Positions 1,144 through 16,657 of a stretch of 18,053 nucleotides of DNA are shown one piece after another (positions within the stretch are counted from its first letter, which is position 1; each line of letters opens with the position of its first letter). Origin of the DNA: a virus (lineage: Duplodnaviria > Heunggongvirae > Uroviricota > Caudoviricetes); IMG/VR virus record IMGVR_UViG_2563366942_000011. One strand, 5' to 3'. Under the pieces are notes generated by a model, which saw only the letters and a program-made list of their open reading frames with translations, was not told the DNA's origin and made no database searches. The translations under genes and the position numbers were made by a program.

Positions 1144-1209
1144 CAGCGATTATCCGTTGGAGTTTTGGGTTTGCGTTTATTGGGAGTTGCGGTTCTGCAA
1201 GCGTTCCTA

Positions 1210-1218
1210 CAAAACGGG
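1210..1218. repeat. IS1 target-site duplication, left copy (CAAAACGGG)
   Basis: Identical 9-mer at 1210-1218 and 1987-1995 directly flanking the IS1 ends. Confidence 0.95.
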
Positions 1219-1233
1219 GGTAATGACTCCAAC

Positions 1234-1737: not shown

Positions 1738-1931
1738 CCAACGCCATTCATGGCCATATCAATGATTTTCTGGTGCGTACCGGGTTGAGAAGCAGTGTAA
1801 GTGAACTGCAGTTGCCATGTTTTACGGCAGTGAGAGCAGAGATAGCGCTGATGTCCGGCGGTGCTTTTGCCGTTACGCACCACCCCGTCAGTAGCTGAAC
1901 AGGAGGGACAGCTGATAGAAACAGAAGCCAC
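1656..1931 (-). CDS. insA: IS1 InsA (transposition inhibitor / N-terminal part of transposase)
   Basis: 91-aa [42 protein letters not shown]..., the InsA zinc-finger sequence. Confidence 0.95.
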
Positions 1932-1986
1932 TGGAGCACCTCAAAAACACCATCATACACTAAATCAGTAAGTTGGCAGCATCACC

Positions 1987-1995
1987 CAAAACGGG
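1987..1995. repeat. IS1 target-site duplication, right copy (CAAAACGGG)
   Basis: Identical 9-mer at 1210-1218 and 1987-1995 directly flanking the IS1 ends. Confidence 0.95.
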
Positions 1996-2285
1996 AATTT
2001 CGGTCAATCATCCAGTAGCGACCAACTTTTATAGCGGGTGGGGCCATCATTTTCCCTTGCGCGTATTTTTTCAGAACTCGCTCACTTGGTGCTAAGTCCC
2101 CAAATTCTTCTTTAGCCCAGTCCTGTAAAGTGATTAGTCGAGACATTTGTCCTCCTCTTAGCTGCTGAGGGAGTTTGTGACCGATATATCTGACATGATA
2201 TTAAGCTCATGGCAGGTACATCTCTTGACTGGTCATAGAGATAAATTTAATGCTGAGAAATGCAGTATTGAATTTATCAATTTTT

Positions 2286-2525
2286 CTATTTCCTGCGTAT
2301 GGCACGTAACTTCTTAATGTGTTCTGCTGTTTCGATCTCTTCAGCTATCCGATCTGCGTCAGCTTTATTCACAGGTTCAAAGTCATGATTAAAGCGGAAC
2401 ATGCTGGCGATACATGTTCTGCCTTTTCGGATGTAGTGAACTTTGTTGTGAGTGGAACGCAGGATTTTGCAGGGAGTGCCGTGGTGGTCGACGTACCAGG
2501 TGTTAGGGTAAATCACTCTGAACAT
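2286..2525 (-). CDS. Hypothetical small protein (79 aa) of the int-proximal accessory region
   Basis: ORF with ATG at 2525 preceded by an AAGG RBS; same strand as the pL operon; no family recognised. Confidence 0.6.
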   Translation of the reverse strand: MFRVIYPNTWYVDHHGTPCKILRSTHNKVHYIRKGRTCIASMFRFNHDFEPVNKADADRIAEEIETAEHIKKLRAIRRK

Positions 2526-2550
2526 TCTTGACCTTGTGTTGTGCGGATTG

Positions 2551-2835
2551 TTATTCAGTGCCGATATTTACCTTTATCGCGTATACCTTTACCGGTTTAT
2601 CACCGAAGTGCGGATGTGTGATTGTCTTCACTTCATATCCGTCATACGGAACATCAACTCTGCGGCTGGAATCGTCGCGCTTCGGATATCCCTTTGTGAT
2701 AATCAGGCGGTCATGCTTACGGTTAACGAGGCGCTTTTTCCAGTAGTCATTACACAGGCGATACTCTTCCGTTTTCTCTCCGCGAATCATGGCATCGAAG
2801 TATTCACCTTTAACGGCAAGTTGCAGGTTAGCCAC
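2551..2835 (-). CDS. ASCH/DUF3850-like small protein
   Basis: GTG start at 2835 six nt after AGGAG; N-terminal ...GEYFDAMIRGEKTEEYR... resembles the ASCH-type motif. The track ORF extends to 2919, but that extension overlaps the upstream gene. Confidence 0.55.
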   Translation of the reverse strand: MANLQLAVKGEYFDAMIRGEKTEEYRLCNDYWKKRLVNRKHDRLIITKGYPKRDDSSRRVDVPYDGYEVKTITHPHFGDKPVKVYAIKVNIGTE

Positions 2836-3568
2836 GGTTAACTCCTTGCTGTGTGGCGTCGAGTAATAAATCCCACAACCGCTGAGAGCAATTTCCGCAT
2901 GTACAGCGTTGACCCACAACGTTTATCGCGTTGCTGATTTCCGGCGTTACCTGTTTAGGAACCATAACCCAACCATCCGGAGTTACCGGAAGCGAGAACG
3001 GCAGCACATCTCTGTGAACAAGTTTTTGCTGTGACAGGTTATCCAGAACTTTCTGTACTGCTGCATCACCGAATACACCAAGCGCATCTGCCATAACTCC
3101 TACAACCTGATAAGCCTCAGCGCATACCGTGGATAAACCATCCGGAATTACCGGAGAGTTGCCGGGTTCTTTAATGTGCAAGCGAGGCTCACCATCTTTT
3201 GGCTCAGGCCACTGGCGCTCCATGTTGATCTTCAATTTATCTTCCATAGCAACGGTAATTTCAGCATCGCTGATGCCAGCACGGCGCTGTGCATCCCACA
3301 ACAGAAACTGCATATCAGCCCACTCGCTAAGATCGTCTGGTTCGGCTGCGGCTTCCAGTGCCTCTTTTGAGAGGTGTTTCAGTGGACCAATGGGGCCAAC
3401 GCAGCCAAATGTGGAGTCAGACCATTTGGCATGCTCGTGGCGAATCTGTTCGCGTTCCAGTGATGCCAGTGCAATTCGTGCTAGTTCCATTTGTTCGCCA
3501 CGAGTAAGCCCGTTTTCAAGCGGATTTTTAATGAACAATTCAATACGTTCTTTGGTAATAGTGGTCAT
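2828..3568 (-). CDS. Putative dATP/dGTP pyrophosphohydrolase-like protein (DUF550-type N-terminal domain) with C-terminal module
   Basis: 246-aa ORF; N-terminal MTTITKERIELF...GEQMELARIALASLEREQIRHEHAKW resembles the DUF550/MazG-like phage family as I recall it; ATGA overlap with the upstream gene. Confidence 0.65.
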   Translation of the reverse strand: MTTITKERIELFIKNPLENGLTRGEQMELARIALASLEREQIRHEHAKWSDSTFGCVGPIGPLKHLSKEALEAAAEPDDLSEWADMQFLLWDAQRRAGISDAEITVAMEDKLKINMERQWPEPKDGEPRLHIKEPGNSPVIPDGLSTVCAEAYQVVGVMADALGVFGDAAVQKVLDNLSQQKLVHRDVLPFSLPVTPDGWVMVPKQVTPEISNAINVVGQRCTCGNCSQRLWDLLLDATQQGVNRG

Positions 3569-3774
3569 GTGTTAATCCTCAAAACTTTATGCCCGGGCGC
3601 AAAAGTACGTGTTTTGTCTTTGCTTATTCGCCACCCGTCTTTACGGGCCTCTTTTGCACAACCAGACCATGACTTACCGATATACTCACCGAAGTCTGGC
3701 ACTGGATATACACCTTCCGTACACTGGCGACAATCACAATAGAGATGCATGGTGTAACTTGCGGCAATAGCCAT
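3565..3774 (-). CDS. Small Cys-rich protein (69 aa), putative zinc-binding
   Basis: ATG at 3774 lies 1 nt after the stop of the 202-aa ORF; product MAIAASYTMHLYCDCRQCTEG... with a CxC..C cluster; stop overlaps the next start (ATGA). Confidence 0.6.
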   Translation of the reverse strand: MAIAASYTMHLYCDCRQCTEGVYPVPDFGEYIGKSWSGCAKEARKDGWRISKDKTRTFAPGHKVLRINT

Positions 3775-3775
3775 A

Positions 3776-4384
3776 TCACTCTCTTTTTCCCTGAAGCATG
3801 GCAGCGTGGCAGGCATCCTCTACGCCCTTAACTGCATCTGCGCAGTAGTTATAGCGATTGCATTCCACTAACTTCTGCCTGAGATTTTCAATTGCTTGCG
3901 CGACATCAGCCTGTATTACAGGAACTGGCGGAACGGCTGTCTGCTGCTCTCGAACGTCATTAGTCGCTATCGGTTCTGCTGCCAACTGACTGGCATATTT
4001 GTTAATGGTAACGATAAGCTCTTGCTCAGCCTCATCCAGACAATCACCGATACCTCGCCTGTCGCCGTCAAAATCATCGAAATCAGCACGAACTCTGGCA
4101 AATTTCAGGATTGCGGACAACACCTCACCAGGAATTACCGGAGAGTTGGTTGACGTTTCCGAAATTTCCCGAAAATTATTGGTTGACGAATTCGCGTTTT
4201 CCCGAAAGTTTCCGGCATGAAGCATAGCCGCGCGGCAGGCGTTCCAGCCTCTCACCTCTGCAATAGCGGCAACAGCATCGACCGCGTACATGCTAAGAGG
4301 GTTAGGCATTGGTTTTTCTTCAGGTACTACTGGCACTGGCTTGGCATATATAGCGGCTGAACATACCAACCCTTTGATAACCAA
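3776..4384 (-). CDS. ea22-family modular protein, linker plus C-terminal module (start uncertain; possibly the frameshifted 3' part of one gene with 4327-4581)
   Basis: Frame opens at TTG 4384 straight after an in-frame stop; contains the linker AKPVPVVPEE and later NSPVIPGE; first ATG is at 4309 (MPNPLSMY...). Confidence 0.55.
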   Translation of the reverse strand: MVIKGLVCSAAIYAKPVPVVPEEKPMPNPLSMYAVDAVAAIAEVRGWNACRAAMLHAGNFRENANSSTNNFREISETSTNSPVIPGEVLSAILKFARVRADFDDFDGDRRGIGDCLDEAEQELIVTINKYASQLAAEPIATNDVREQQTAVPPVPVIQADVAQAIENLRQKLVECNRYNYCADAVKGVEDACHAAMLQGKRE

Positions 4385-4581
4385 CTGTCAGCAATGTTTT
4401 TACTCCTCGTTATTGCCGGAATACCTAAGCCATTGTCTGAATGCAGCCATGCCACCGGATTCTCTTCCAGCGATGCCAGAGCAATTTCATAAGCCCGGCG
4501 CTCAACATTGTCTCGCACATCCAAACTGCTGATACGCTCTTTGATTTCTTTAATCAGTTCTTTGTCGGTAAAAGTGCTCAT
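4327..4581 (-). CDS. ea22-family N-terminal module (85 aa), possibly the 5' part of a frameshifted gene
   Basis: ATG at 4581 lies 1 nt after the ea22-like stop; MSTFTDKELIKEIKERISSLDVRDNVERRAYEIALASLEENP...; overlaps the next frame by 58 nt. Confidence 0.5.
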   Translation of the reverse strand: MSTFTDKELIKEIKERISSLDVRDNVERRAYEIALASLEENPVAWLHSDNGLGIPAITRSKNIADSWLSKGWYVQPLYMPSQCQ

Positions 4582-4582
4582 A

Positions 4583-5347
4583 TCAATCTCCATTGGTATC
4601 AATGTTTACAGCCTGACAAGACTCTTTGAGCACCCAGTCAATAGCGTCTTTCCATGCCTCTGTTTCGACTGGTGGATTTTCACGCTTAACCTGTTCATAG
4701 AAGCGCACTGCTTTAACCAGTCCTTCCGGTACTACTGGTGATGGCTGTTTAGCTTCTAAATCAGCAATTCTGTCAACCACGGCATCGACAGCATCTGAAA
4801 AGCCGAACCAGTTGCTCCACTCCGGCTCATCCCCGGTTGCTGCAAAGTACATATCTGCTAAAGCAGATTCAGCATGGTCACGCTCGTTAATGAGTTGCTC
4901 TTCGCTTTTCTCCAGTTCAGCAATACGCTTACCCCCATCCGAGATAACACCTTCGTAATACTCACGCTGCTCGTTGAGTTTTGATTTTGTCTCCTCAAGC
5001 TCAACTCTCAGCTTCCCAACAGTAAGAGCAATATCCTCGTTCTCCTGGTCGCGGCGTTTTATGTATTGCTGGTTTCTTTCCCGTTCATCCAGCAGTGCCA
5101 GCACAGTAGCCGGATTGGCTGCGGCGATGAATTCAGCATTGGCCTGCTGTTCCATTTGGAAATCTTCATCGAAACCGCTTTCTGGATGCGCTCCTTCAAT
5201 TCTGCAAATGGGAATATATCCAGCAACTTCACGATGAATTAGCGCATAATCACCATCAAATCGGCTCTCTCCATATTCGAGCGACCACTCACCACACGTT
5301 GCTTTTTCTGCCGCTTCACGCAGTGCCTGATAGTTAATTTCGCTCAC
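4583..5347 (-). CDS. ea22: Ea22-like protein
   Basis: GTG start at 5347 overlapping the orf73 stop; product begins (V)SEINYQALREAAE and contains LLDERERNQQYIKRRDQENEDIALTVGKLRVELEE...NEQREYYEGVISDG, matching lambda Ea22 as recalled; divergent ends. Confidence 0.8.
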   Translation of the reverse strand: MSEINYQALREAAEKATCGEWSLEYGESRFDGDYALIHREVAGYIPICRIEGAHPESGFDEDFQMEQQANAEFIAAANPATVLALLDERERNQQYIKRRDQENEDIALTVGKLRVELEETKSKLNEQREYYEGVISDGGKRIAELEKSEEQLINERDHAESALADMYFAATGDEPEWSNWFGFSDAVDAVVDRIADLEAKQPSPVVPEGLVKAVRFYEQVKRENPPVETEAWKDAIDWVLKESCQAVNIDTNGD

Positions 5348-5565
5348 TTCGAACCTCTCTGTTTACTGATAAGCTCCAGATCCTCCTGGCAACTTGCACA
5401 AGTCCGACAACCCTGAACGACCAGGCGTCTTCGTTCATCTATGGGATCGCCACACTCACAACAATGAGTGGCGGATATAGTCTGGTAGTTCAGACGACGC
5501 ATTTTTATTGCTGTATTGCGCTGTAATTCTTCAATTTCTGATGCTGAATCAATGATGTCCGCCAT
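5344..5565 (-). CDS. orf73: DksA/TraR-family C4 zinc-finger protein (lambda Orf73-like)
   Basis: 73-aa ORF with CCECGDPIDERRR...CRTCASC, two CxxC pairs typical of TraR/DksA; same position as lambda orf73. Confidence 0.8.
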   Translation of the reverse strand: MADIIDSASEIEELQRNTAIKMRRLNYQTISATHCCECGDPIDERRRLVVQGCRTCASCQEDLELISKQRGSK

Positions 5566-5611
5566 CTTTCATTAATCCCTGAATTGTTGGTTAATACGCT
5601 TGAGGGTGAAT

Positions 5612-5641
5612 GCGAATAATAAAAAAGGAGCCTGTAGCTCC
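5612..5641 (-). terminator. Intrinsic terminator-like hairpin inside the pL operon (minus strand)
   Basis: Minus strand reads GGAGCTACAGGCTCC followed by TTTTTTATTATT; between the orf61-like gene and orf73. Confidence 0.5.
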
Positions 5642-5663
5642 CTGATGATTTTGCTTTTCATGT

Positions 5664-5945
5664 TCACCGTTCCTTAAAGACGCCGTTTAACATGCCGATC
5701 GCCAGGCTTAAATGAGTCGGTGTGAATCCCATCAGCGTTACCGTTTCGCGGTGCTTCTTTAGTACGCTACGGCAAATGTCATCGACGTTTTTATCCGGAA
5801 ACTGCTGTCTGGCTTTTTTGATTTCAGAATTAGCCTGACGGGCAATGCTGCGAAGGGCGTTTTCTTGCTGAGGTGTCACTGAACAAGCCCCATGTCGGCA
5901 AGCATAAGCACACAGAATATGAAGCCCGCTGCCAGAAAAATGCAT
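5664..5945 (-). CDS. Lambda orf61-like small protein (start uncertain)
   Basis: Open frame whose C-terminal two-thirds (VTPQQENALRSIARQANSEIKKARQQFPDK...GMLNGVFKER) is lambda-region-like; true start may be internal (GTG at VTPQQ). Confidence 0.6.
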   Translation of the reverse strand: MHFSGSGLHILCAYACRHGACSVTPQQENALRSIARQANSEIKKARQQFPDKNVDDICRSVLKKHRETVTLMGFTPTHLSLAIGMLNGVFKER

Positions 5946-5955
5946 TCAGTGGTTG

Positions 5956-6147
5956 TCATACCTGGTCTCTCTCATCTGCTTCTGCTTTCGCCACCATCAT
6001 TTCCAGCTTTTGTGAAAGGGATGTGGCTAACGTATGAAATTCTTCGTCTGTTTCTACTGGTATTGGCACAAACCTGACTCCAATTTGAGCAAGGCTATGT
6101 GCCATCTCAATACTCGTTCTTAACTCAACAGGAGATGCTTTGTGCAT
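5956..6147 (-). CDS. orf63: Lambda Orf63-like protein
   Basis: 63-aa [40 protein letters not shown]... in the lambda orf63 position. Confidence 0.8.
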   Translation of the reverse strand: MHKASPVELRTSIEMAHSLAQIGVRFVPIPVETDEEFHTLATSLSQKLEMMVAKAEADERDQV

Positions 6148-6302
6148 ACCGCCTCCCGTTTATTATTTATCTTCTCAGCCAGCCGCTGTGCTTTCAGTGG
6201 ATTTCTGATAACAGAAAGGCCGGGAAATACCCAGCCTCGCTTTGTAACGGAGTAGACGAAAGTGATCGCGCCTACCCGGATATTATCGTGAGGATGCGTC
6301 AT
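6120..6302 (-). CDS. orf60a: Lambda Orf60a-like protein
   Basis: [43 protein letters not shown]...; ATG at 6302 overlaps the exo stop (ATGA). Confidence 0.8.
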
Positions 6303-6979
6303 CGCCATTGCTCCCCAAATACAAAACTAATTTCAGCCAGTGCCTCGTCCATTTTTTCGATGAACTCCGGCACCATCTCGTCAAAACTCGCCATGTACTT
6401 TTCATCCCGCTCAACCACGACATAATGCAGTCCTTCACGCTTCATACGCGGGTCATAGTTGGCAAAGTACCAGGCATCTTTTCGCGTCACCCACATGCTG
6501 TACTGCACCTGGGCCATGTAAGCCGATTTTATGGCCTCGAAACCACCGAGCCGGAACTTCATGAAATCCCGGGAGGTAAACGGGCATTTCAGCTCAAGGC
6601 CGTTGCCGTCACTGCATAAACCATCGGGAGAGCAGGCGGTGCGCATACTTTCGTCGCGATAGATGATCGGGGATTCAGTAACATTCACGCCGGAAGTAAA
6701 CTCAAACAGGGCTCTGGCGTCGTTCTCGTACTGTTTTCCCCAAGCCAGCGCCTTAGCGTTAACTTCCGGAGCCACACCGGTGCAAACCTCAGCAAGCAGG
6801 GTGTGGAAGTAGGACATTTTCATGTCAGGCCATTTCTTTCCGGAGCGGGGTTTTGCTATCACGTTGTGAACTTCTGAAGCGGTGATGACGCCGAGCCGTA
6901 ATTTGTGCCATGCATCATCCCCCTGTTCGACAGCTCTCACGTCGATCCCGGTACGCTGCAGGATAATGTCCGGTGTCAT
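6299..6979 (-). CDS. exo: Lambda exonuclease (Red alpha)
   Basis: 226-aa [68 protein letters not shown]..., matching lambda Exo as recalled. Confidence 0.97.
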
Positions 6980-7761
6980 GCTGCCACCTTCTGCTCAGTG
7001 GCTTTCTGTTTCAGGAATCCAAGAGCTTTCACTGCTTCGGTCTGTGTCAGTTCTGACGATGCGCGAATGTCGCGGCGAAATATCTGGGAACAGAGCGGCA
7101 ATAAGTCGTCATCCCATGTTTTATCCAGGGCGATCAGCAGAGTGTTAATCTCCTGCATGGTTTCATCGTTAACCGGAGTGATGTCGCGTTCCGGCTGACG
7201 TTCTGCAGTGTATGCGGTATTTTCGACAATGCGCTCGGCTTCATCCTTGTCATAGATACCAGCAAATCCGAAGGCGAGACGGGCACACTGAATCATGGCT
7301 TTATGCCGTAACATCCGTTTGGGATGCGACTGCCACGGCCCCGTGATTTCTCTGCCTTCGCGGGTTTTGAATGGTTCGCGGCGGCATTCATCCATCCACT
7401 CGGTAACGCAGATCGGATGATTGCGGTCTTTGCGGTAAATCCGGCATGTACATGATTCATTGTCCTGCTCAAAGTCCATACCATCAAACTGCTGGTTTTC
7501 ATTGATGATGCGGGACCAGCCATCAACGCCCACCACCGGAACAATGCCGTTCTGCTTATCAGGGAAGGCGTAAATTTCTTTCGTCCACGGATTAAGGCCG
7601 TACTGGTTGGCGACGATCAACAATGCGATGAACTGCGCATCGCTGGCATCACCTTTAAATGCCGTCTGGCGAAGAGTGGTGATCAGTTCCTGTGGGTCGA
7701 CAGAATCCATGCCGACACGTTCAGCCAGCTTCCCTGCCAGCGTTGCGAGTGCTGTACTCAT
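6976..7761 (-). CDS. bet: Single-strand annealing protein Bet (Red beta)
   Basis: 261-aa [69 protein letters not shown]..., matching lambda Bet almost residue-for-residue as recalled. Confidence 0.97.
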
Positions 7762-7766
7762 CCGTT

Positions 7767-8063
7767 TTATACCTCTGAATCAATATCAGCCTGATGGTGA
7801 GCAATGGTTTCAACTATGTACCGGATGTGTTCTGCCATGCGCTCCTGAAACTCAACATCGTCATCAAACGCACGGGTAATGGCTTTTTTGCTGGCCCCGT
7901 GGCGTTGTAAATGATCGATGCATAGCGATTCAAACAGGTGCTGGGGCAGGCCTTTTTCCATGTCGTCTGCCAGTTCTGCCTCTTTCTCTTCACGGGCGAT
8001 CTGCTGGTAGTGACGCGCCCAGCTCTGAGCCTCAAGACGATCCTGAATGTAATAAGCGTTCAT
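7767..8063 (-). CDS. gam: Gam, RecBCD inhibitor (short 98-aa form)
   Basis: [60 protein letters not shown]...; the upstream ATG at 8184 is in a different frame. Confidence 0.95.
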
Positions 8064-8138
8064 GGCTGAACTCCTGAAAATGGCTGTGAAAATATCGCCC
8101 GCGAAATGCCAGGCTGATTAGGAAAACAGGAAAGGGGG

Positions 8139-8282
8139 TTAGTGAATGCTTTTGCTTGATCTCAGTTTCAGTATTAATATCCATTTTTTATAAGCGTCGA
8201 CGGCCTCACGAAACATCTTTTCATCGCCAATAAAAGTGGCGATAGTGAATTTAGTCTGGATAGCCATAATTGTTTGATCCAT
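8139..8282 (-). CDS. kil: Kil (host cell-division inhibitor), 47 aa
   Basis: [47 protein letters not shown] from ATG 8282. The 89-aa track ORF is this gene with a spurious 5' extension that overlaps cIII in another frame. Confidence 0.85.
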
Positions 8283-8415
8283 TTTTTGGGACTCCTGGCT
8301 GATTAAGTATGTCGATAAGGCGTTTCCATCCGTCACGTAATTTACGGGTGATTCGTTCAAGTAAAGATTCGGAAGGGCAGCCAGCAACAGGCCACCCTGC
8401 AATGGCATATTGCAT
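8251..8415 (-). CDS. cIII: CIII (FtsH/HflB inhibitor that stabilises CII), 54 aa
   Basis: Hand translation from ATG 8415: [54 protein letters not shown]; too short for the ORF track; overlaps kil by 32 nt as in lambda. Confidence 0.9.
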   Translation of the reverse strand: MQYAIAGWPVAGCPSESLLERITRKLRDGWKRLIDILNQPGVPKNGSNNYGYPD

Positions 8416-8487
8416 GGTGTGCTCCTTATTTATACATAACGAAAAACGCCTCGAGTGAAGCGTAATTGGTATGCGGTAACGCCGCGC

Positions 8488-8856
8488 TCAGGCGGCCTTG
8501 ATAGTCATATCATCTGAATCAAATATTCCTGATGTATCGATATCGGTAATTCTTATTCCTTCACTACCATCCATTGGAGGCCATCCTTCCTGACCATTTC
8601 CATCATTCCAGTCGAACTCACACACAACACCATATGCATTTAAGTCGCTTGAAATTGCTATAAGCAGAGCATGTTGCGCCAGCATGATTAATACAGCATT
8701 TAATACAGAGCCGTGTTTATTGAGTCGGTATTCAGAGTCTGACCAGAAATTATTAATCTGGTGAAGTTTTTCCTCTGTCATTACGTCATGGTCAATTTCA
8801 ATTTCTATTGATGCTTTCCAGTCGTAATCAATGATGTATTTTTTGATGTTTGACAT
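8488..8856 (-). CDS. ea10: Ea10-like protein
   Basis: 122-aa ORF MSNIKKYIIDYDWKASIEIEIDHD... in the lambda ea10 position. Confidence 0.85.
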   Translation of the reverse strand: MSNIKKYIIDYDWKASIEIEIDHDVMTEEKLHQINNFWSDSEYRLNKHGSVLNAVLIMLAQHALLIAISSDLNAYGVVCEFDWNDGNGQEGWPPMDGSEGIRITDIDTSGIFDSDDMTIKAA

Positions 8857-8873
8857 CTATTCATATCCTCATA

Positions 8874-8902
8874 GATAAAAAATCGCCCTCACACTGGAGG
8901 GC
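8874..8902 (-). terminator. Terminator-like hairpin between ral and ea10 (minus strand)
   Basis: Minus strand reads GCCCTCCAGTGTGAGGGC followed by GATTTTTTATC. Confidence 0.45.
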
Positions 8903-9038
8903 AAAGAAGATTTCCAATAATCAGAACAAGTCGGCTCCTGTTTAGTTACGAGCGATATTGCTCCGTGTATTCACTCGTTGGAATGAATACACAGTGCAGT
9001 GTTTATTCTGTTATTTATGCCAAAAATAAAGGCCACTA

Positions 9039-9239
9039 TCAGGCAGCTTTGTTGTTCTGTTTACCAAGTTCTCTGGCAATCATTGCCGTCGTTCGTATTG
9101 CCCATTTATCGACATATTTCCCATCTTCCATTACAGGAAACATTTCTTCAGGCTTAACCATGCATTCCGATTGCAGCTTGCATCCATTGCATCGTTTGAA
9201 TTGTCCACACCATTGATTTGTATCAATAGTCGTAGTCAT
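9039..9239 (-). CDS. ral: Ral (restriction alleviation)
   Basis: 66-aa ORF MTTTIDTNQWCGQFKRCNGCKLQSECMVKPEEMF... in the lambda ral position. Confidence 0.88.
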   Translation of the reverse strand: MTTTIDTNQWCGQFKRCNGCKLQSECMVKPEEMFPVMEDGKYVDKWAIRTTAMIARELGKQNNKAA

Positions 9240-9309
9240 ACGGATAGTCCTGGTATTGTTCCATCACATCTTGAGGATGCTCTTCGAACTCTTCAAATTC
9301 TTCTTCCAT
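9223..9309 (-). CDS. Small acidic ORF (28 aa), lambda orf28-like
   Basis: MEEEFEEFEEHPQDVMEQYQDYPYDYDY; overlaps the ral start by 17 nt; below the ORF-track length cutoff. Confidence 0.4.
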   Translation of the reverse strand: MEEEFEEFEEHPQDVMEQYQDYPYDYDY

Positions 9310-9479
9310 ATATCACCTTAAATAGTGGATTGCGGTAGTAAAGATTGTGCCTGTCTTTTAACCACATCAGGCTCGGTGGTTCTCGTGTACCCCTACAACG
9401 AGAAATCGGATAAACTCTATTCACCCCTACAGAGAGCAAAAGAGAAACGCCGATGAACAACTCATGGTGGTAGGAACTA

Positions 9480-10034
9480 ATGCATTTTTTCCTGCAAGGA
9501 ATGACACTTAAACAGTTGATTCATATGCTAATCATCCTGATCATATTGATTATTGTTATGCCGGTAAGCGTAAAAGAATGGATAAACCTGCATAATCCAG
9601 AAATCCTTCCTCATTACTGGATGTATTACATCCTGTTGTTTTGCGTTAGCTATGTGCTTAACGGCGTTGTTAATTCCGCTTATCACGCTGTGACTGAAAG
9701 AATTGAGGTATTCGCTGCTCAGAAGCGCAAATCTAAAGAAGAAAAATATGTGCAAGATTTGTTTGATTCGTTAACTCTTGGAGAAAGAGCGTATTTGGCA
9801 TTCGCTGTAGCCGCTAATAACCAGCTACAAACGGAAAAGGGCGCTCATGAATCAATTTCATTGCTCAAAAAAGGACTCCTCGTTCGAAGGCCTCCTGCTG
9901 TTGGATATCCTGATACCGACCGTTTCGTTATCCCTGAAAGCTATAGACATGAGTGCTACATTAGGTTTGCCGGGAAGGCAGACAGCCTTATGGATGAACT
10001 TATCGCTCAGGATAAGCATGGCAAAAACAAGTAA
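9480..10034 (+). CDS. sieB: Superinfection exclusion protein B (SieB-like, membrane)
   Basis: 184-aa plus-strand ORF with a hydrophobic N-terminus (LIHMLIILIILIIVMPV...), convergent with N as sieB is in lambda and Rac. Confidence 0.8.
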   Translation: MHFFLQGMTLKQLIHMLIILIILIIVMPVSVKEWINLHNPEILPHYWMYYILLFCVSYVLNGVVNSAYHAVTERIEVFAAQKRKSKEEKYVQDLFDSLTLGERAYLAFAVAANNQLQTEKGAHESISLLKKGLLVRRPPAVGYPDTDRFVIPESYRHECYIRFAGKADSLMDELIAQDKHGKNK

Positions 10035-10050
10035 TTAGCAAATGAATTTA

Positions 10051-10323
10051 TCATCTCGCCGTCAGTTGTTTTGATTTCCGGTAGCCTGCCGCGTAAAGAG
10101 CTACGTTCGGAAGACAAGTTGAACCTTCATATTTTCTGGTCAACGTTGTCAGAGTTATCACTTCTGCTCTCATTGCTGGTTTGAGCTTGCATTGCAAGAC
10201 CACTCGTGAAGGGGGTGGCCTGTGTAGCTTGTCGGAGCTGATCGCCTCCTGACTTTGCAGATTTGCGCGACGAGCTCTACGGCGAGAAGCTGCGGTGCCT
10301 TTAAATTCTGTTTTTCTGGACAT
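10051..10323 (-). CDS. N: N-family transcription antiterminator (non-lambda; C-terminus resembles P22 gp24 as recalled)
   Basis: ATG at 10323 behind a GGAGGA RBS; 90 aa beginning MSRKTEFKGTAASRRRARRANLQ (arginine-rich motif) and ending ...VALYAAGYRKSKQLTAR. The 114-aa track ORF is a 5' over-extension. Confidence 0.75.
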   Translation of the reverse strand: MSRKTEFKGTAASRRRARRANLQSQEAISSDKLHRPPPSRVVLQCKLKPAMRAEVITLTTLTRKYEGSTCLPNVALYAAGYRKSKQLTAR

Positions 10324-10421
10324 GGATTCCTCCCGAATAAACTTTGGCGATGCAATCTCGAAGCTCCTCCTGAGACGGTTGCTTCGGCATTGCATCCCAC
10401 AGCTTATGTGGTTGGGTGATC

Positions 10422-10466
10422 TGGCTTTTCAGCCACGTAGTCGAGAGTCGACGTTGTTTAAAGAGC
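10422..10466 (-). promoter_or_regulatory. nutL: nutL: boxA (GCTCTTTAAACAACG) + spacer hairpin + boxB (TGGCTGAAAAGCCA)
   Basis: Minus strand reads GGCTCTTTAAACAACGTCGACTCTCGACTACGTGGCTGAAAAGCCAG about 100 nt upstream of N; same architecture as the nutR candidate. Confidence 0.6.
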
Positions 10467-10499
10467 CTGCCAGTCTGTTCCATTTGGCTTCCAGCGTCC

Positions 10500-10560
10500 T
10501 GCTGACGGTTAAATAGTACGATATGTACTTTACAAGATCAATACAATTTGTTGTAAGTTG
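10500..10560 (-). promoter_or_regulatory. pL/oL region: candidate -35 TTGATC, -10 TACTAT and palindromic operators
   Basis: AGTAC-N5-GTACT at 10515-10529 overlapping the putative spacer and -10; ACAA-N4-TTGT at about 10543-10554. Confidence 0.4.
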
Positions 10561-10724
10561 GCGTGGTTTTTTATAACGCTTTGTATTTAATAGTGTTGTT
10601 TTTTAGCGTGGATGTATTGCCTCGGCGATGTAAGGAGAGATCAGAATTGCGTGGTTTAGTGGGTTGCATCTATTTATTTTTCAATAAATATAATTGGTTA
10701 TGTGTTTTTAGGTGGGCGAACGTG

Positions 10725-10753
10725 AGGCAAAGAAAACCCGGCGCTGAGGCCGG
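10725..10753 (-). terminator. Intrinsic terminator ending the cI / two-gene cassette transcript (t-imm analogue)
   Basis: Minus strand reads CCCGGCCTCAGCGCCGGG followed by TTTTCTTTG, just downstream of the 250-aa gene stop. Confidence 0.6.
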
Positions 10754-10759
10754 GTTGTA

Positions 10760-11512
10760 TTATGCTGCAAGTCTCTTAACCCAAGTCTCTCTTTTGGAGA
10801 ATGGTAGAACTTGGCTTGATTCATGGAAGAGTAAGGAGAGTTGTTGCATTTGATCACCAATTGCTTCGCTGTCTATAACAACAAATCTGTTGTTATACTC
10901 CTCACTTGAAGCTTTAAGATCAATTAGTTTCCCAAGCAATGAGTAAGCACTATTCCAGCTTCCTCCGTGTTTCACGCTTGATGTAAAAACGTATTTAGGT
11001 ATGTCGGTTTTTATTGTTACAGGGACGGTAATTTGATGTCCACTCAAGCCATATACGTTTTCACGAAGAGAAAGTGCGTCTCTAAGCTCTGTGTGATATA
11101 GATAATCAATAACCATACTTTCAAACTTTTCAGCTTGAACTGGCTGATACCAGTCTAACGACAAAGTTGATGCGAGTATACCAGCTCTAATTATGTTCGA
11201 TGTAATCGCACCGACATCCTTTTCTGTTGCCCAAGCAATGATTTCTCCTCGAGCATTGAGTTCTGCGCCTTCTTTAAGCAGTAATTGTCGTATCTCATCA
11301 AGTCGTTTTTTGGTAAGCGAGATCCCTCTTGCCTCCATATTCATTAAGGCATCGCATCTGTCACTAACTAAATACCTACCATTGACTTCACGGATAAAGG
11401 CACCGACATGCTCTCCATCATCACAGTAAGTGAATGGACTGATAATTCTCAAGGTCTTGCCTATTGGATGGCATTCGAAACCTAGTTGTGAGATCACTGT
11501 TGAGCACATCAT
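10760..11512 (-). CDS. Uncharacterised 250-aa protein, distal gene of a two-gene cassette at the rexAB-equivalent locus
   Basis: ATG ATG start overlaps the upstream stop (ATGA); no long hydrophobic segments; AT-rich relative to flanks; no known family recognised. Confidence 0.8.
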   Translation of the reverse strand: MMCSTVISQLGFECHPIGKTLRIISPFTYCDDGEHVGAFIREVNGRYLVSDRCDALMNMEARGISLTKKRLDEIRQLLLKEGAELNARGEIIAWATEKDVGAITSNIIRAGILASTLSLDWYQPVQAEKFESMVIDYLYHTELRDALSLRENVYGLSGHQITVPVTIKTDIPKYVFTSSVKHGGSWNSAYSLLGKLIDLKASSEEYNNRFVVIDSEAIGDQMQQLSLLFHESSQVLPFSKRETWVKRLAA

Positions 11513-12066
11513 ATTCCAAACCCCATTTGCCCCGACTCATCTTCAAGCGGTAAAGGTATTCTCCCAGAGTAAGTTATGTTCAGATGTTTACAGAAGTAAT
11601 TCCAATACCCTACCAGGTCATCTGGGTTTATGTCATCTTCGATTGGAAACGCTATTCTATCACTATAGTATCCAGCTTCTTCATAGTATACATGGTAGTG
11701 AGCACCGTAAATGATATCTTGGTACTTCGGATGATCGACCTTGTAACTATTCGTGTGTTTGTCAAAGTGATAGGTATCTACCGCGAAAACCCTCTTGTTA
11801 TGATAGAAAGCAATAATATTTATTTTAGGGTAAGAAATCGGGTCATCAGGTTCTGAATCCTGATCTGGTTTCCATTTCAGTTCAAACTTTAGCCCTTGTA
11901 TAGGTATACAATCCTCATCCAAGGGGATGATATGGGCTTGTAGCCACATATCAGAGCGACTTGGTTTCTGTTTCCATTTAACGCCAGAAAAGTTAACTAT
12001 TTTTTTACAATAAAGTACTTTATCAACTTCTACTTGGCTTGGCTGATAATCATCTATTTTTGCCAA
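11509..12066 (-). CDS. Uncharacterised 185-aa protein, proximal gene of a two-gene cassette at the rexAB-equivalent locus
   Basis: Frame opens at TTG 12066 straight after an in-frame stop, 40 nt downstream of the cI stop; aromatic/His-rich stretch DHPKYQDIIYGAHYHVYYEEAGYY; AT-rich. Confidence 0.75.
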   Translation of the reverse strand: MAKIDDYQPSQVEVDKVLYCKKIVNFSGVKWKQKPSRSDMWLQAHIIPLDEDCIPIQGLKFELKWKPDQDSEPDDPISYPKINIIAFYHNKRVFAVDTYHFDKHTNSYKVDHPKYQDIIYGAHYHVYYEEAGYYSDRIAFPIEDDINPDDLVGYWNYFCKHLNITYSGRIPLPLEDESGQMGFGI

Positions 12067-12105
12067 TGTTTACCGCCCTGTAAATTGTAGATAAAAGTGG
12101 TTTCA

Positions 12106-12765
12106 TCACCCAAACGTCTCTTCAGGCCATTGGCTGGCGATAACTTTCCCCACAACGGAACAACTCTCATTGCATGGGATCATTGGGTATTGTGGGTTTA
12201 GTGGCTGTAGAAACACCTGACCGCTATCCCTGATCAGTTTCTTGAAGGTAAATTCATCACCACCAAGTCTGGCTATGCAGAAATCGCCGGGCTCAACAGC
12301 TTGCTCAGGGTCAACCAGAATTAACATCCCGTCAGGAAAGCTGGGTTTGGAACCTGTTGGTGCGGTCATTGAGTTACCTTCAACCTCAAGCCAGAATGCA
12401 GAGTCACTGGCTTTTTTGGTTGTGCTTACCAATCTCTCCGCATCGCCTTTGGTAAAGGTTCTGAGTTCTGGAGAGAACATCCCAGCCTGAACATGAGAAA
12501 AAACAGGGTACTCATATTGTTTTTTAACTGGGGCCGATGAGTATTCGCCAACAGGTGAAAATGTCCCGTCGTGGTTGAATGATATGTTATCAATACCAAG
12601 GTATTTAAACACCACACCAATATCACTAAGAGATGGATGACGAGATCCGCGCAACCAGTGTCCAATCCCACCCTGCGTCATACCTAGCTCTTCGGCTAAC
12701 TTCTCTTGAGTTATGCCGAGCTCTTTCATTCTGGATCTAGCCAGTTCATACCATTTCATTTTCAT
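12106..12765 (-). CDS. cI: CI repressor, hybrid: non-lambda HTH (XRE-type) N-terminal domain with lambda-type C-terminal domain
   Basis: C-terminal ~135 aa ([29 protein letters not shown]...[10 protein letters not shown]) match lambda CI CTD as recalled; N-terminal [40 protein letters not shown] is a different HTH. Start chosen at the ATG with an AAGGA RBS; the track's 5' extension is probably not translated. Confidence 0.88.
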
Positions 12766-12875
12766 GTCCTTATTATTACGCTCTGTACTGGAACCATCCA
12801 TGCACAATGTGTATTTTTACTTGTATTCGCAAAGTACATATTGTATTTTTTATTCGTGTTTACTATGGAGGGCAT
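12766..12875. promoter_or_regulatory. oR region with divergent pRM/pR candidates and operator-like repeats
   Basis: 110-bp cI-cro intergenic region; AGTACATATTGTATT at 12833-12847 is a degenerate copy of the oL palindrome; additional TGTA/TACA half-sites. Confidence 0.45.
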
Positions 12876-13091
12876 ATGAGCAACCTACGAAAATATCGAG
12901 AGTCACTGAATATCTCTCAAACAACACTTGCTAAGGCAGTTGGATGCACACAGGGAGCTATCGGACATTGGGAATCTGGTCGTCGCTTCCCAGACCTTAA
13001 AACATGCCGTGCTCTTGTTGCGTGCCTAAACAAGTTAGGCGCAAAAGTCAGTCTTGATGACGTGTTCCCGCCGGAACACAAAGCCGCTTAA
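12876..13091 (+). CDS. cro: Cro-like repressor (XRE-type HTH)
   Basis: ATG at 12876 behind a GGAGGG RBS; 71 aa MSNLRKYRESLNISQTTLAKAVGCTQGAIGHWESGRR...; its recognition-helix region resembles that of cI (TQGGIGHW vs TQGAIGHW). Confidence 0.82.
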   Translation: MSNLRKYRESLNISQTTLAKAVGCTQGAIGHWESGRRFPDLKTCRALVACLNKLGAKVSLDDVFPPEHKAA

Positions 13092-13101
13092 TAAGCGGAT
13101 C

Positions 13102-13147
13102 CGCTCTTTGTAACAACGGACATTCGTCCTACGTCGCTGAAAAGCGA
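13102..13147 (+). promoter_or_regulatory. nutR: nutR: boxA (CGCTCTTTGTAACAACG) + spacer hairpin (GGACATTCGTCC) + boxB (TCGCTGAAAAGCGA)
   Basis: Immediately downstream of the cro stop; same architecture as nutL, including the TACGT element before boxB and the GAAAA loop. Confidence 0.6.
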
Positions 13148-13232
13148 GTTCCAAGATATCTGACCAACTAAGGCCATATGCGTTTCCACGCATACCTTTC
13201 AACTAACTATTCACTATTGGAAATCTTAAGAA

Positions 13233-13529
13233 ATGGAAAGAACAAGTTACAGCAAACTATCACAGCGTGACGTTGATCGCGCAGAAACAGATTTACTTAT
13301 CAATCTGTCAGCTATTACCCAGCGCGGTCTGGCAAAGATGATTGGCTGTCATGAATCGAAGATAAGCAGAACGGACTGGAGATTTATTGCTTCGGTCTTG
13401 TGTGCTTTCGGAATGGCATCAGACATCAGTCCGATTAGCAGGGCTTTTAAGTATGCGCTTGATGGACTCACCAATAAAAAACGCCCGGCGGCAACCGAGC
13501 GTTCTGAACAAATCCAGATGGAATTCTGA
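13233..13529 (+). CDS. cII: CII transcriptional activator, hybrid (non-lambda N-terminal part, lambda-identical C-terminus)
   Basis: 98-aa ORF ending ...LTNKKRPAATERSEQIQMEF, identical to the lambda CII tail as recalled; N-terminal two-thirds differ. Confidence 0.85.
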   Translation: MERTSYSKLSQRDVDRAETDLLINLSAITQRGLAKMIGCHESKISRTDWRFIASVLCAFGMASDISPISRAFKYALDGLTNKKRPAATERSEQIQMEF

Positions 13530-13551
13530 GGTCATTACTGGATCAATCCAC
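13474..13551 (-). ncRNA. oop: OOP antisense RNA (antisense to the cII 3' end)
   Basis: Plus strand AATAAAAAACGCCCGGCGGCAACCGAGCGTTCTGAACAAATCCAGATGGAATTCTGAGGTCATTACTGGATCAATCCAC is, a few substitutions aside, the reverse complement of lambda OOP RNA as recalled, including the GCCGCCGGGCG-U6 terminator. Confidence 0.7.
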
Positions 13552-13561
13552 AGGAGTCATT

Positions 13562-14461
13562 ATGACAAATACAGCAAAAATACTCAACTTCTGCAGAGGT
13601 AACTTTGCCAAACAGGAGCGTAATGTGGCAGATCTCGATGATGGTTACGCCAGACTATCAAATATGCTGCTTGAGGCTTATTCAGGCGCAGATCTGACCA
13701 AGCGACAGTTTAAAGTGCTGCTTGCCATTCTGCGTAAAACCTATGGATGGAATAAACCAATGGACAGAATCACCGATTCTCAACTTAGCGAGATTACAAA
13801 GTTACCCGTCAAACGGTGCAATGAAGCCAAGTTAGAACTCGTCAGAATGAATATTATCAAGCAGCAAGGCGGCATGTTTGGACCAAATAAAAACATCTCA
13901 GAATGGTGTATCCCTCAAAACGAGGGAAAATCCCCTAAAACGAGGGATAAAACATCCCTCAAATTGGGGGATTGCTATCCCTCAAAACAGGGGGACACAA
14001 AAAACACTATTACAAAAGAAAAAAGAAAAGATTATTCGTCAGAGAATTCTGGCGAATCCTCTGACCAGCCAGAAAACGACCTTTCTGTGGTGAAACCGGA
14101 TGCTGCAATTCAGAGCGGCAGCAAGTGGGGGACAGCAGAAGACCTGACCGCCGCAGAATGGATGTTTGACATGGTGAAGACCATCGCGCCATCAGCCAGA
14201 AAACCGAATTTTGCAGGGTGGGCTAACGATATCCGCCTGATGCGTGAACGTGACGGACGTAACCATCGCGACATGTGTGTACTGTTCCGCTGGGCATGCC
14301 AGGACAACTTCTGGTCCGGTAACGTGCTGAGCCCGGCCAAACTCCGCGACAAGTGGACCCAGCTCGAAATCAACCGTAACAAGCAACAGGCAGGTGTGAC
14401 AGCCTGCAAACCAAAACTCGACCTGACAAACACTGACTGGATTTACGGGGTGGATTTATGA
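13562..14461 (+). CDS. O: Replication initiator O
   Basis: 299-aa ORF MTNTAKILNFCRGNFAKQERNVADLDDGYARLSNMLLEAYSGADLTKRQFKVLLAILRKTYGW..., near-identical to lambda O as recalled; contains the ori iterons. Confidence 0.97.
   Translation: MTNTAKILNFCRGNFAKQERNVADLDDGYARLSNMLLEAYSGADLTKRQFKVLLAILRKTYGWNKPMDRITDSQLSEITKLPVKRCNEAKLELVRMNIIKQQGGMFGPNKNISEWCIPQNEGKSPKTRDKTSLKLGDCYPSKQGDTKNTITKEKRKDYSSENSGESSDQPENDLSVVKPDAAIQSGSKWGTAEDLTAAEWMFDMVKTIAPSARKPNFAGWANDIRLMRERDGRNHRDMCVLFRWACQDNFWSGNVLSPAKLRDKWTQLEINRNKQQAGVTACKPKLDLTNTDWIYGVDL
13909..14040. repeat. Lambda-type replication origin: four ~19-bp iterons plus adjacent A/T-rich segment, inside O
   Basis: TATCCCTCAAAACGAGGGAAA / ATCCCCTAAAACGAGGGATAA / ACATCCCTCAAATTGGGGGAT / CTATCCCTCAAAACAGGGGGACA followed by CAAAAAACACTATTACAAAAGAAAAAAGAAAAG. 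Confidence 0.9.
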
Positions 14462-15159
14462 AAAACATCGCCGCACAGATGGTTAATTTTGACCGTGAGC
14501 AGATGCGTCGGATCGCCAACAACATGCCGGAACAGTACGACGAAAAGCCGCAGGTACAGCAGGTAGCGCAGATCATCAACGGTGTGTTCAGCCAGTTACT
14601 GGCAACTTTCCCGGCGAGTCTGGCTAACCGTGACCAGAACGAACTGAACGAAATCCGCCGCCAGTGGGTTCTGGCTTTCCGGGAAAACGGGATCACCACA
14701 ATGGAACAGGTTAACGCAGGAATGCGCGTAGCCCGTCGGCAGAATCGACCATTTCTGCCATCACCCGGGCAGTTTGTTGCATGGTGCCGGGAAGAAGCAT
14801 CCGTTATCGCCGGACTGCCAAACGTCAGCGAGCTGGTTGATATGGTTTACGAGTATTGCCGGAAGCGAGGCCTGTATCCGGATGCAGAGTCTTATCCGTG
14901 GAAATCGAACGCGCACTACTGGCTGGTTACCAACCTGTACCAGAACATGCGGGCCAATGCGCTGACTGACGCGGAATTACGACGCAAGGCTGCCGATGAA
15001 CTGACCTGTATGACAGCGCGAATTAACCGTGGTGAGACGATACCTGAACCAGTAAAACAACTTCCTGTCATGGGCGGCAGACCTCTAAATCGTGTTCAGG
15101 CGCTGGCGAAGATCGCAGAAATTAAAGCTAAGTTAGGACTGAAAGGAGCAAGTGTATGA
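14458..15159 (+). CDS. P: Replication protein P (DnaB helicase loader)
   Basis: 233-aa ORF MKNIAAQMVNFDREQMRRIANNMPEQYDEKPQVQQVAQIINGVFSQLLATFPASLANRDQ..., matching lambda P as recalled; ATGA overlap with O. Confidence 0.96.
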   Translation: MKNIAAQMVNFDREQMRRIANNMPEQYDEKPQVQQVAQIINGVFSQLLATFPASLANRDQNELNEIRRQWVLAFRENGITTMEQVNAGMRVARRQNRPFLPSPGQFVAWCREEASVIAGLPNVSELVDMVYEYCRKRGLYPDAESYPWKSNAHYWLVTNLYQNMRANALTDAELRRKAADELTCMTARINRGETIPEPVKQLPVMGGRPLNRVQALAKIAEIKAKLGLKGASV

Positions 15160-15446
15160 CGGGCAAAGAGGCAATTATTCATTACCTGGGGACGCATAAT
15201 AGCTTCTGTGCGCCGGACGTTGCCGCGCTAACAGGCGCAACAGTAACCAGCATAAATCAGGCCGCGGCTAAAATGGCACGGGCAGGTCTTCTGGTTATCG
15301 AAGGTAAGGTCTGGCGAACGGTGTATTACCGGTTTGCTACCAAGGAAGAACGGGAAGGAAAGATGAGCACGAACCTGATTTTTAAGGAGTGTCGCCAGAG
15401 TGCCACGATGAAACGGATATTGGCGGTATATGGAGTTAAAAGATGA
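15156..15446 (+). CDS. ren: Ren (Rex exclusion resistance)
   Basis: 96-aa ORF MTGKEAIIHYLGTHNSFCAPDVAALTGATVTSINQAAAKMARAGLLVIEGKVWRTVYYRF..., matching lambda Ren as recalled. Confidence 0.92.
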   Translation: MTGKEAIIHYLGTHNSFCAPDVAALTGATVTSINQAAAKMARAGLLVIEGKVWRTVYYRFATKEEREGKMSTNLIFKECRQSATMKRILAVYGVKR

Positions 15447-15470
15447 CCATCTACATCACTGAGCTAATAA

Positions 15471-15503
15471 CAGGCCTGCAGGTAATCGCAGGCCTTTTTA
15501 TTT
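15471..15503 (+). terminator. tR2-like intrinsic terminator
   Basis: AGGCCTGC-AGGTAATC-GCAGGCCT hairpin followed by TTTTTATTT, between ren and ninB. Confidence 0.8.
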
Positions 15504-15519
15504 GGGGGAGAGGGAAGTC

Positions 15520-15960
15520 ATGAAAAAACTAACCTTTGAAATTCGATCTCCGGCACATCAGCAAAACGCTATTCACGCAGTACAGCAAATCCTTCCAGAC
15601 CCAACCAAACCAATCGTAGTAACCATTCAGGAACGCAACCGCAGCTTAGACCAAAACAGGAAGCTATGGGCCTGCTTAGGTGACGTCTCTCGTCAGGTTG
15701 AATGGCATGGTCGCTGGCTGGATGCAGAAAGCTGGAAGTGTGTGTTTACCGCAGCATTAAAGCAGCAGGATGTTGTTCCTAACCTTGCCGGGAATGGCTT
15801 TGTGGTAATAGGCCAGTCAACCAGCAGGATGCGTGTAAGCGAATTTGCGGAGCTATTAGAGCTTATACAGGCATTCGGTACAGAGCGTGGCGTTAAGTGG
15901 TCAGACGAAGCGCGACTGGCTCTCGAATGGAAAGCGCGATGGGGAGATCGGGCTGCATGA
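15520..15960 (+). CDS. ninB: NinB (Orf recombination mediator)
   Basis: ATG at 15520 behind a GGGAGAGGGAAG RBS; MKKLTFEIRSPAHQQNAIHAVQQILPDPTKPIVVTIQERNRSLDQNRKLW..., matching lambda NinB as recalled. The track start at TTG 15502 is an over-extension. Confidence 0.93.
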   Translation: MKKLTFEIRSPAHQQNAIHAVQQILPDPTKPIVVTIQERNRSLDQNRKLWACLGDVSRQVEWHGRWLDAESWKCVFTAALKQQDVVPNLAGNGFVVIGQSTSRMRVSEFAELLELIQAFGTERGVKWSDEARLALEWKARWGDRAA

Positions 15961-16484: not shown

Positions 16485-16657
16485 GACGACAGCGACGAAG
16501 CATCACCGACATAATCTGCGAAAACTGCAAATACCTTCCAACGAAACGCTCCAGAAATAAACGCAAGCTAATCCCAAAAGAATCTGACGTAAAAACCTTC
16601 AATTACACAGCCCACCTGTGGGATATCCGGTGGCTAAGATATCGTGCGAGGAAATGA
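16481..16657 (+). CDS. ninE: NinE
   Basis: [58 protein letters not shown]; start overlaps the methyltransferase stop (ATGA). Confidence 0.85.

Follow-up and report, generated by a model that had tools for sequence, protein, structure and literature searches.

A common lambdoid prophage beside icd with a predicted VT2-Sakai-type immunity region and a chimeric CI repressor

The immunity region of the virus record IMGVR_UViG_2563366942_000011 (IMG/VR; Caudoviricetes), analysed here within the whole stretch of 18,053 nucleotides that we call the window, is best explained as that of a common lambdoid prophage integrated at icd, which would be the same phage as ev207, ev017 and PhiR63_2. In this prophage, a switch set of the type found in the Shiga toxin 2 (Stx2) phages VT2-Sakai, Stx2 II and 1717 (CI, Cro, the right operators OR1-3, the left operators OL1-3, N, nutL and nutR; hereafter Sakai-type) appears to be flanked by a recombination module (exo to ral) and a replication module (oop, O, P, ren, ninB), both from a pool shared by lambda, 434 and 21. 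Its repressor CI is predicted to be a natural domain chimera, with a non-lambda helix-turn-helix (HTH) domain joined at lambda residue 101 to a lambda-type self-cleaving and oligomerising module. This joint would be an older domain shuffle inherited with the repressor type, predating the prophage and common to all repressors of the immunity type. Taken as a whole, with the region read as a patchwork, we hold this explanation to be very probable. A first-pass annotation had instead proposed one immunity block swapped in between lambda genes, from 10051 to joints within cI and cII.

The cI gene, on the minus strand, encodes 217 residues that are all identical to those of CI from 1717 and Stx2 II, and over its full length it shares 98.7-99% nucleotide identity with cI of VT2-Sakai, Stx2 II and the PA-series Stx2 phages. 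The N-terminal HTH domain (residues 1-81, 12517-12759; Pfam HTH_3; 100% identical to 1717 and Stx2 II) has 30% amino acid identity to the lambda N-terminal domain over 50 residues, and no nucleotide alignment with lambda exists on its side of 12516. The C-terminal module (residues 82-217, 12106-12516), which comprises the hinge, the Ala-Gly site and the S24 peptidase/oligomerisation domain, equals lambda CI 101-236 except for W129L (135 of 136 residues). The switch lies exactly where the first-pass annotation had placed it, between ...SSAPVKKQ and YEYPVFSHV, at window 12516/12517; this corresponds to lambda 37637/37638 and to lambda CI residue 101.

The same annotation had made this joint one end of the swapped block, and here the evidence points the other way. 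By sliding identity, the C-terminal module scores 96-100% against 1717 and Stx2 II and only 88-98% against lambda. It carries 27 mismatches to lambda in 411 nucleotides (6.6%), 26 of them in synonymous codons and one causing an amino acid change, compared with 117 in 4896 nucleotides (2.4%) for the arm genes (module versus arms, Fisher p = 1e-5). The module has thus diverged more from lambda than the arms have, which argues for a longer separate history, and it travels with the Sakai-type N-terminal domain. Judged by its sequence, this lambda-like part of cI is to be counted with the immunity block and not with the lambda-like backbone. Moreover, the lambda-immunity phages in the database (including HK97, SfI, HK106 and mEp234) all start matching at the same base because they all have one cI, and such a single start base suggests one old event rather than a recurrent hot spot.

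One sequence, EC.P3 (PQ657771, 2285-2295), was considered as a second independent event, and so a hot spot, at the cI joint. It has an identical N-terminal domain followed by ...AAAAAACAA/GTGATAGG (G plus the TGA of the cI stop) and lacks exactly the lambda-like module. The junction was absent from one-genome-per-species representatives and from IMG/VR, and in 5426 E. coli genomes the two halves of cI are always separated by the module of about 409 nucleotides. Since it was seen nowhere else, a second event was rejected, and the EC.P3 cI junction is taken as an isolated deletion or as an assembly that skipped over a repeat.

The module retains the equivalents of the Ala111-Gly112 site (VQA/GMF) and of the Ser149/Lys192 dyad within a LexA/S24 domain (Pfam PF00717, Peptidase_S24, 1e-28), and its first residue coincides with that of the self-cleaving lambda CI fragment 101-229 crystallised in the PDB. 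From the near identity with lambda CI 101-236 we infer that CI would undergo RecA-stimulated autocleavage. In the mechanism that we propose, CI dimers would bind six 17-bp sites with a TACRNNNTGTA core and repress PR and PL, until SOS-activated RecA provokes self-cleavage of CI at Ala-Gly and the prophage is induced. The CI start is most likely the ATG at 12759 (217 residues), because an AAGGA Shine-Dalgarno sequence lies 7 nucleotides upstream and the 1717 annotation agrees. The RefSeq start of cI, at 12801, falls within OR2.

Putative operators were located at 10514-10530 (OL1), 10539-10555 (OL2) and 10572-10588 (OL3), and at 12774-12790 (OR3), 12800-12816 (OR2) and 12832-12848 (OR1). The Stx2 II annotation has exactly the same OR1-3 and OL1, while OL2 and OL3 are each one base off. 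All six sites have the core TACRNNNTGTA, perfect matches to which occur three times in the 18 kb, every one in OL or OR; by our own arithmetic, three positions drawn at random would all hit such a target, about 150 bp out of 18 kb, with a probability of about 6e-7. Lambda half-sites (TATCACCGC-type, up to 2 mismatches) were found neither in 10500-10600 nor in 12770-12850. Cro (12876-13091, plus strand, 71 residues; Pfam HTH_3, 4e-12) is identical to 1717 Cro at 71 of 71 positions and gave no blastp match to lambda Cro. Thus, none of the three features of the lambda immunity group (a lambda-type CI DNA-binding domain, operator half-sites and Cro) is present, and the repressor, Cro and operator sequences of the VT2-Sakai/Stx2 II/1717 group are. 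The match of the six operators with the Stx2 II annotation and the lack of lambda half-sites lead us to predict an immunity of Sakai type and not of lambda type. The prophage would protect its lysogen against Sakai-type Stx2 phages and ev207-like phages and leave it, as regards repressor immunity, sensitive to lambda, 434 and 21. The earlier expectation of a non-lambda specificity combined with lambda-type cleavage and oligomerisation domains therefore fits both domains and operators, and is a reasonable prediction.

Several points weigh against this explanation. The operator calls combine sites that are annotated as putative in Stx2 II with a motif scan. From centre to centre, the sites lie 25 and 33 bp apart in OL, and 32 and 26 bp apart in OR, with no mirror symmetry, compared with 24/20 and 24/23 in lambda; as the spacings differ, lambda-like pairwise cooperativity is plausible but an assumption. 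Furthermore, in gel shifts lambda CI bound the VT2-Sakai operators with apparent dissociation constants of 3.7-6.4 uM, against 0.2-0.35 uM on lambda OR1/OL1 (PMC10742460). We read such micromolar binding as near non-specific and as no argument for cross-immunity, but it leaves a small doubt on complete heteroimmunity. Finally, pairwise identities cannot reveal in which order and direction the exchanges took place.

The mosaic was mapped against lambda by blastn of the window against NC_001416, which detected four lambda-like segments and no alignable lambda sequence between them. The left arm (5299-9432, minus strand; lambda 30347-34480; 97.5% identity) contains the ea22 C-terminus, exo, bet, gam, kil, cIII, ea10 and ral. 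It is followed by an island around the terminator tImm (10635-10756, minus strand; lambda 35708-35826; 90%), by the cI C-terminal module (12105-12516, minus strand; lambda 37226-37637; 93.4%) and by the right arm (13467-15960, plus strand; lambda 38591-41084; 97.2%), with the cII tail, oop, O, P, ren and ninB. At the joints, identity rises within a few bases to 93-97%, starting from about 40%, as for unrelated DNA; such steps are far beyond chance. On these alignments the region is, relative to lambda, a patchwork of at least seven segments and not one block. Its boundaries coincide with edges of functional units, namely 9432/9433 (before sieB), 10051 (N stop), 10756/10757 (base of the tImm hairpin), 12105-12108 (cI stop), 12516/12517 (start of the CI hinge) and 13465-13475 (3' end of oop in cII).

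The map also drew on 434, 21, HK97, HK022, 1717, 2B8, 2G7b and EC.P3, and the immunity regions of phi80 and P22 were covered through database-wide blastn runs. Alignments resolved the cI and cII joints to the base. N, the operators, cro and the N-terminal parts of cI and cII proved to be non-lambda, as the first-pass annotation had stated, and its view of the flanking genes as near-lambda also held, the proteins of exo, bet, gam, cIII, ea10, ral, O, P, ren and ninB being 96-100% identical to lambda by blastp. The likeness of the arms extends beyond lambda: the left arm is equally 97-98% identical to 434, 1717, 2B8 and 2G7b, and the right arm is 97.6% identical to 434 and 96.2% to phage 21 (from 13201). 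Because 434, 21, 1717, 2B8 and 2G7b match the arms at 97-98%, the arms are, as far as alignment can tell, a pool common to lambda, 434 and 21, and not specifically lambda.

It remains to weigh the model in which a lambda genome took one immunity block through two homologous crossovers, in the cI linker and in cII. Such an event would leave homology resuming inside cI (12516) and cII (13467), as is seen when lambda alone is compared. However, the cI C-terminal module matches Stx-phage cI at 99-100% and stands further from lambda than the arms do, and N, OL, sieB and the cargo genes left of cI are non-lambda, so that the block does not end in cI. Exchange at that point would also uncouple OR from OL, which should bar cI from ending a working immunity exchange. 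Moreover, the backbone is not that of lambda, since the integrase is not lambda-like (the prophage lies beside icd) and lambda identity past ninB exists for ninE only. As to linker homology, the joint in cI is abrupt and has no common flank, the one in cII has 9 common nucleotides, and the others fall at a stop codon or a hairpin base. The start proposed at 10051 is only the N stop, the left limit being 9432/9433, although the non-lambda stretch itself is real and is broken by two lambda-like islands. These islands, the replacement of rexA/rexB and the foreign sieB had been missed by the earlier reading. Altogether, we regard a single block exchange as improbable.

Still less probable is an origin of the cI pattern without recombination, through rapid divergence of the N-terminal domain under selection for specificity while the C-terminal part was conserved. 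The module is indeed under strong purifying selection, as its 26 synonymous mismatches and single non-synonymous one indicate, and the N-terminal domains still have a common HTH fold at 30% identity. Yet synonymous divergence in the module is only about 7%, nucleotide identity drops to the unrelated level at 12516/12517, with indels, and selection on protein cannot erase synonymous similarity on one side of a point only. With about 93% synonymous similarity lost so abruptly, over no more than a few bases, this sequence evidence excludes differential divergence as the sole cause. An assembly chimera of two co-resident prophages is the least probable of all, for although repeats among lambdoid prophages often give misjoins, of which EC.P3 is a possible case, the same arrangement recurs at 99.9-100% in isolated phages and in 185 complete genomes from independent projects.

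The right joint, by which the switch set would meet the replication module, lies within cII (13233-13529, plus strand, 98 residues; Pfam Phage_CII, PF05269, 7e-34). CII has a body of 21/HK97/933W type and a lambda-identical tail of 20 residues, with amino acid identities of 87% to 21, 82% to HK97 and, overall, 43% to lambda; the body is of the type shared by 21, HK97 and HK022. Column-by-column alignment places the joint at 13465-13475: identity to 1717 runs to 13464 and identity to phage 21 to 13475, while identity to lambda and 434 begins at 13467, leaving 13467-13475 as a 9-nucleotide interval common to lambda-type and 21-type sequences. CII is lambda-identical from 13467, at ...DG/LTNKKRPAATERSEQIQMEF, which confirms the change of type that had been noticed at first. 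The minus-strand unit at 13478-13587 (terminator hairpin 13505-13478, T run to about 13470, promoter-like site 13587-13559, from terminator and promoter scans) we take to be oop, which overlaps the end of cII by its 3' part. The joint lies 3-10 nucleotides past the T run of this strong terminator. The last 20 cII codons would thus physically be part of the oop-O-P module, and cII changes type at 13465-13475 because these codons belong to the oop/replication module.

The cII type of the window is common, and 933W-like phages match the entire nutR-cII-O stretch in one piece at 93.5-96%. Other phages break at 13525-13531 or at 13569, and phage 21 becomes lambda-like about 30 nucleotides further right, so that this short cII/oop region holds several distinct joints. 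A CII box of the form TTGC-N6-TTGT (TTGCTGTAACTTGT; 13242-13255, minus strand) occupies the position of the promoter PRE. By itself the pattern TTGC-N6-TTGY is not rarer than chance in the window, and its position is what matters. With a Phage_CII domain and such a box in the PRE position, the features of a CII activator are present, and CII would recognise the box at 13242-13255.

N would act at its own nut sites. The N gene (10051-10323, minus strand, 90 residues; Pfam N_peptide, 6e-32) is of the Stx-phage/HK97 type, with amino acid identities of 97.8% to 1717 N, 41% to HK97 N and 33% to lambda N, the last match being restricted to the arginine-rich motif. Homology to 1717, 2B8 and EC.P3 begins at its stop codon, 10051. 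Both nut sites were read from the sequence. The nutL site (10422-10466, minus strand) has a boxA, GCTCTTTAA, at 10466-10458 and a boxB-like hairpin, TGGCTGAAAAGCCA, at 10435-10422; the nutR site (13102-13147, plus strand) has a boxA, CGCTCTTTG, at 13102-13110 and a boxB-like hairpin, TCGCTGAAAAGCGA, at 13134-13147. The two hairpins share the core GCTGAAAAGC. The boxA region of nutL is 88% identical to phage 21 nutL, and the nutR region (13092-13200) is 98% identical to 1717 and 90% to HK97. An additional small hairpin stands between boxA and the GCTGAAAAGC hairpin in both sites (GTCGA-GAG-TCGAC at 10440-10452 in nutL, GGAC-ATTC-GTCC at 13119-13130 in nutR).

On the left, lambda identity is lost at 9432/9433, the true left boundary, and sieB is therefore also non-lambda. 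The gene (9480-10034, plus strand; Pfam SieB, 2.2e-22) is of the P22/ST104 type: blastp of its product against lambda SieB gave no significant match, and window 9059-10114 has about 86% nucleotide identity to Salmonella P22-like phages.

Lambda rexA and rexB are absent and two unrelated open reading frames (ORFs) take their position, in a slot bounded on one side by the tImm hairpin, at its base (10756/10757), and on the other by the stop codon of cI (12105-12108). No lambda homology was found by blastn over 10757-12104. Gene A (11509-12066, minus strand, 185 residues), in the rexA position, overlaps by 4 nucleotides gene B (10760-11512, minus strand, 250 residues; Pfam DUF1828, 5e-8), in the rexB position. 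Neither is homologous to RexA or RexB, with which the pair shares only its position downstream of cI and upstream of tImm. Pfam otherwise gave DUF6978 below the cut-off. PADLOC proposed the candidate PDC-M24, with a full-length match of B to PDC-M24B (4.7e-10) and a weak one of A (4.8e-4 over 60 residues). Relatives of B form about 47 clusters across Enterobacterales and Aeromonas. Prophages of Aeromonas caviae, Pectobacterium carotovorum and Thorsellia kenyensis carry the same translationally coupled A-B pair just downstream of HTH+S24 repressors that are of CI type but unrelated. Gene A has an invariant GxHYHVYYEEAG motif, and its residues H123, H125 and E129 are invariant. AlphaFold models of A and B were confident, with predicted local distance difference test (pLDDT) values of 82-84, and gave no clear fold match, and a literature search on DUF1828/PDC-M24 returned nothing usable. 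By analogy, the pair could tentatively be seen as a new prophage-expressed exclusion or abortive-infection system, RexAB-like in position and expression and possibly nuclease-based, though we think this rather less likely than the contrary. The terminator tImm (hairpin 10756-10735 followed by a T run, minus strand, from the terminator scan) lies in the island 10635-10756, which is common to lambda, 1717, 2B8 and 2G7b. Since rexAB in lambda, a 173-residue ORF in 1717, an NYN-domain gene in 2B8 and a 283-residue ORF (hypothetical protein) in 2G7b fill the slot that A and B fill here, the cargo between the cI stop and tImm changes from relative to relative, and this space is promising ground in a search for defence genes.

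The order of ORFs in the window is int, IS1, exo, bet, gam, kil, cIII, ea10, ral, sieB, N, the two unknown ORFs, cI, cro, cII, O, P, ren, ninB, methylase and rusA. The whole window is found at 99.7-100% in complete E. coli chromosomes, and 185 complete E. coli genomes have 80% of it or more, among them ATCC 25922 and MS 21-1, in which the prophage adjoins icd. The stretch 9400-13700 is 99.9% identical to the isolated phages ev207, ev017, PhiR63_2 and PhiR57_1, all joints and cargo genes included; a literature search on these isolates (ev207 and others) gave nothing usable. Of 5426 complete E. coli genomes, 625 (about 1 in 9) carry the cI-cro-cII core, among which are commensals, probiotics and reference strains (for example APEC O1, Nissle 1917 and ATCC 25922) and also O157:H7. 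In the non-Stx carriers of the core, the repressor may confer immunity against lysogenic conversion by Sakai-type Stx2 phages; identity of the repressor itself was shown only with that of the Stx2 phages 1717 and Stx2 II. Every segment and joint is already present in public phage genomes, and the region is correctly described as a known kind of mosaic; it brings no evolutionary novelty and is textbook lambdoid mosaicism, with boundaries at the edges of genes, domains and terminators.

Some further features of the window were recorded. An IS1 element (1219-1986, 768 bp, insA/insB) with a 9-bp target duplication lies inside the excisionase gene, and prophage copies in other strains lack it; the copy in the window is probably excision-defective owing to this insertion in xis. 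The sole Rfam family detected in the window is Lambda_thermo, the cIII thermoregulator, at 8370-8428 (minus strand, 88.5 bits). Lambda identity ends with ninB (15960), an N6-adenine methyltransferase takes the place of ninC/ninD, and identity comes back for ninE only (16488-16654).

Compared with lambda CI (PDB 3bdn, 2ho0 and 1f39), CI of the window has the same cleavage-site region, S24 core and dimer/tetramer interface. It differs by an N-terminal domain that is 20 residues shorter and lacks the lambda N-terminal arm, and by its putative TACR-N3-TGTA sites with other spacings.

Among the other classical phages, 434 has only the arms in common with the window. Phage 21 shares cIII-ral, 77 nucleotides at nutL and everything rightward of 13201, and its change from own-type to lambda-type sequence also lies inside the cII 3' end/oop region; it differs by its own oop terminator loop and by CI, Cro and N that are unrelated or distant. 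HK97, which carries the cI of lambda, shares the C-terminal module (94.3%) and nutR-cII (89.8%), and HK022 shares cII (87.7%). With P22-like phages, the common parts are sieB/ral (about 86%) and one 94-nucleotide match of 73% in c2, and no more. Lambdoid phages have reportedly long been viewed as modular, with the lambda imm21 and imm434 hybrids as classical cases. Like the window, these hybrids have a foreign switch between lambda-like recombination and replication genes. The slot downstream of cI is variable in lambdoid phages.

The closest relatives are the isolates ev207, ev017, PhiR63_2 and PhiR57_1, from which the window copy differs by the IS1 in xis, and 2G7b, which is 98.6-98.7% identical to the window except in the rex slot. 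Finally, the Stx2 phages VT2-Sakai, Stx2 II, 1717 and the PA series have the same N-terminal/C-terminal chimera of CI as the window; a published classification of Stx-phage CI types does not discuss such a domain chimera (PMC8951638). These Stx2 phages differ from the window by another gene in the rex slot, by the lack of its sieB and ral, by an HK97-type cII tail (72-75% over 13467-13529) and by replication genes of HK97/P22 type from 13569.

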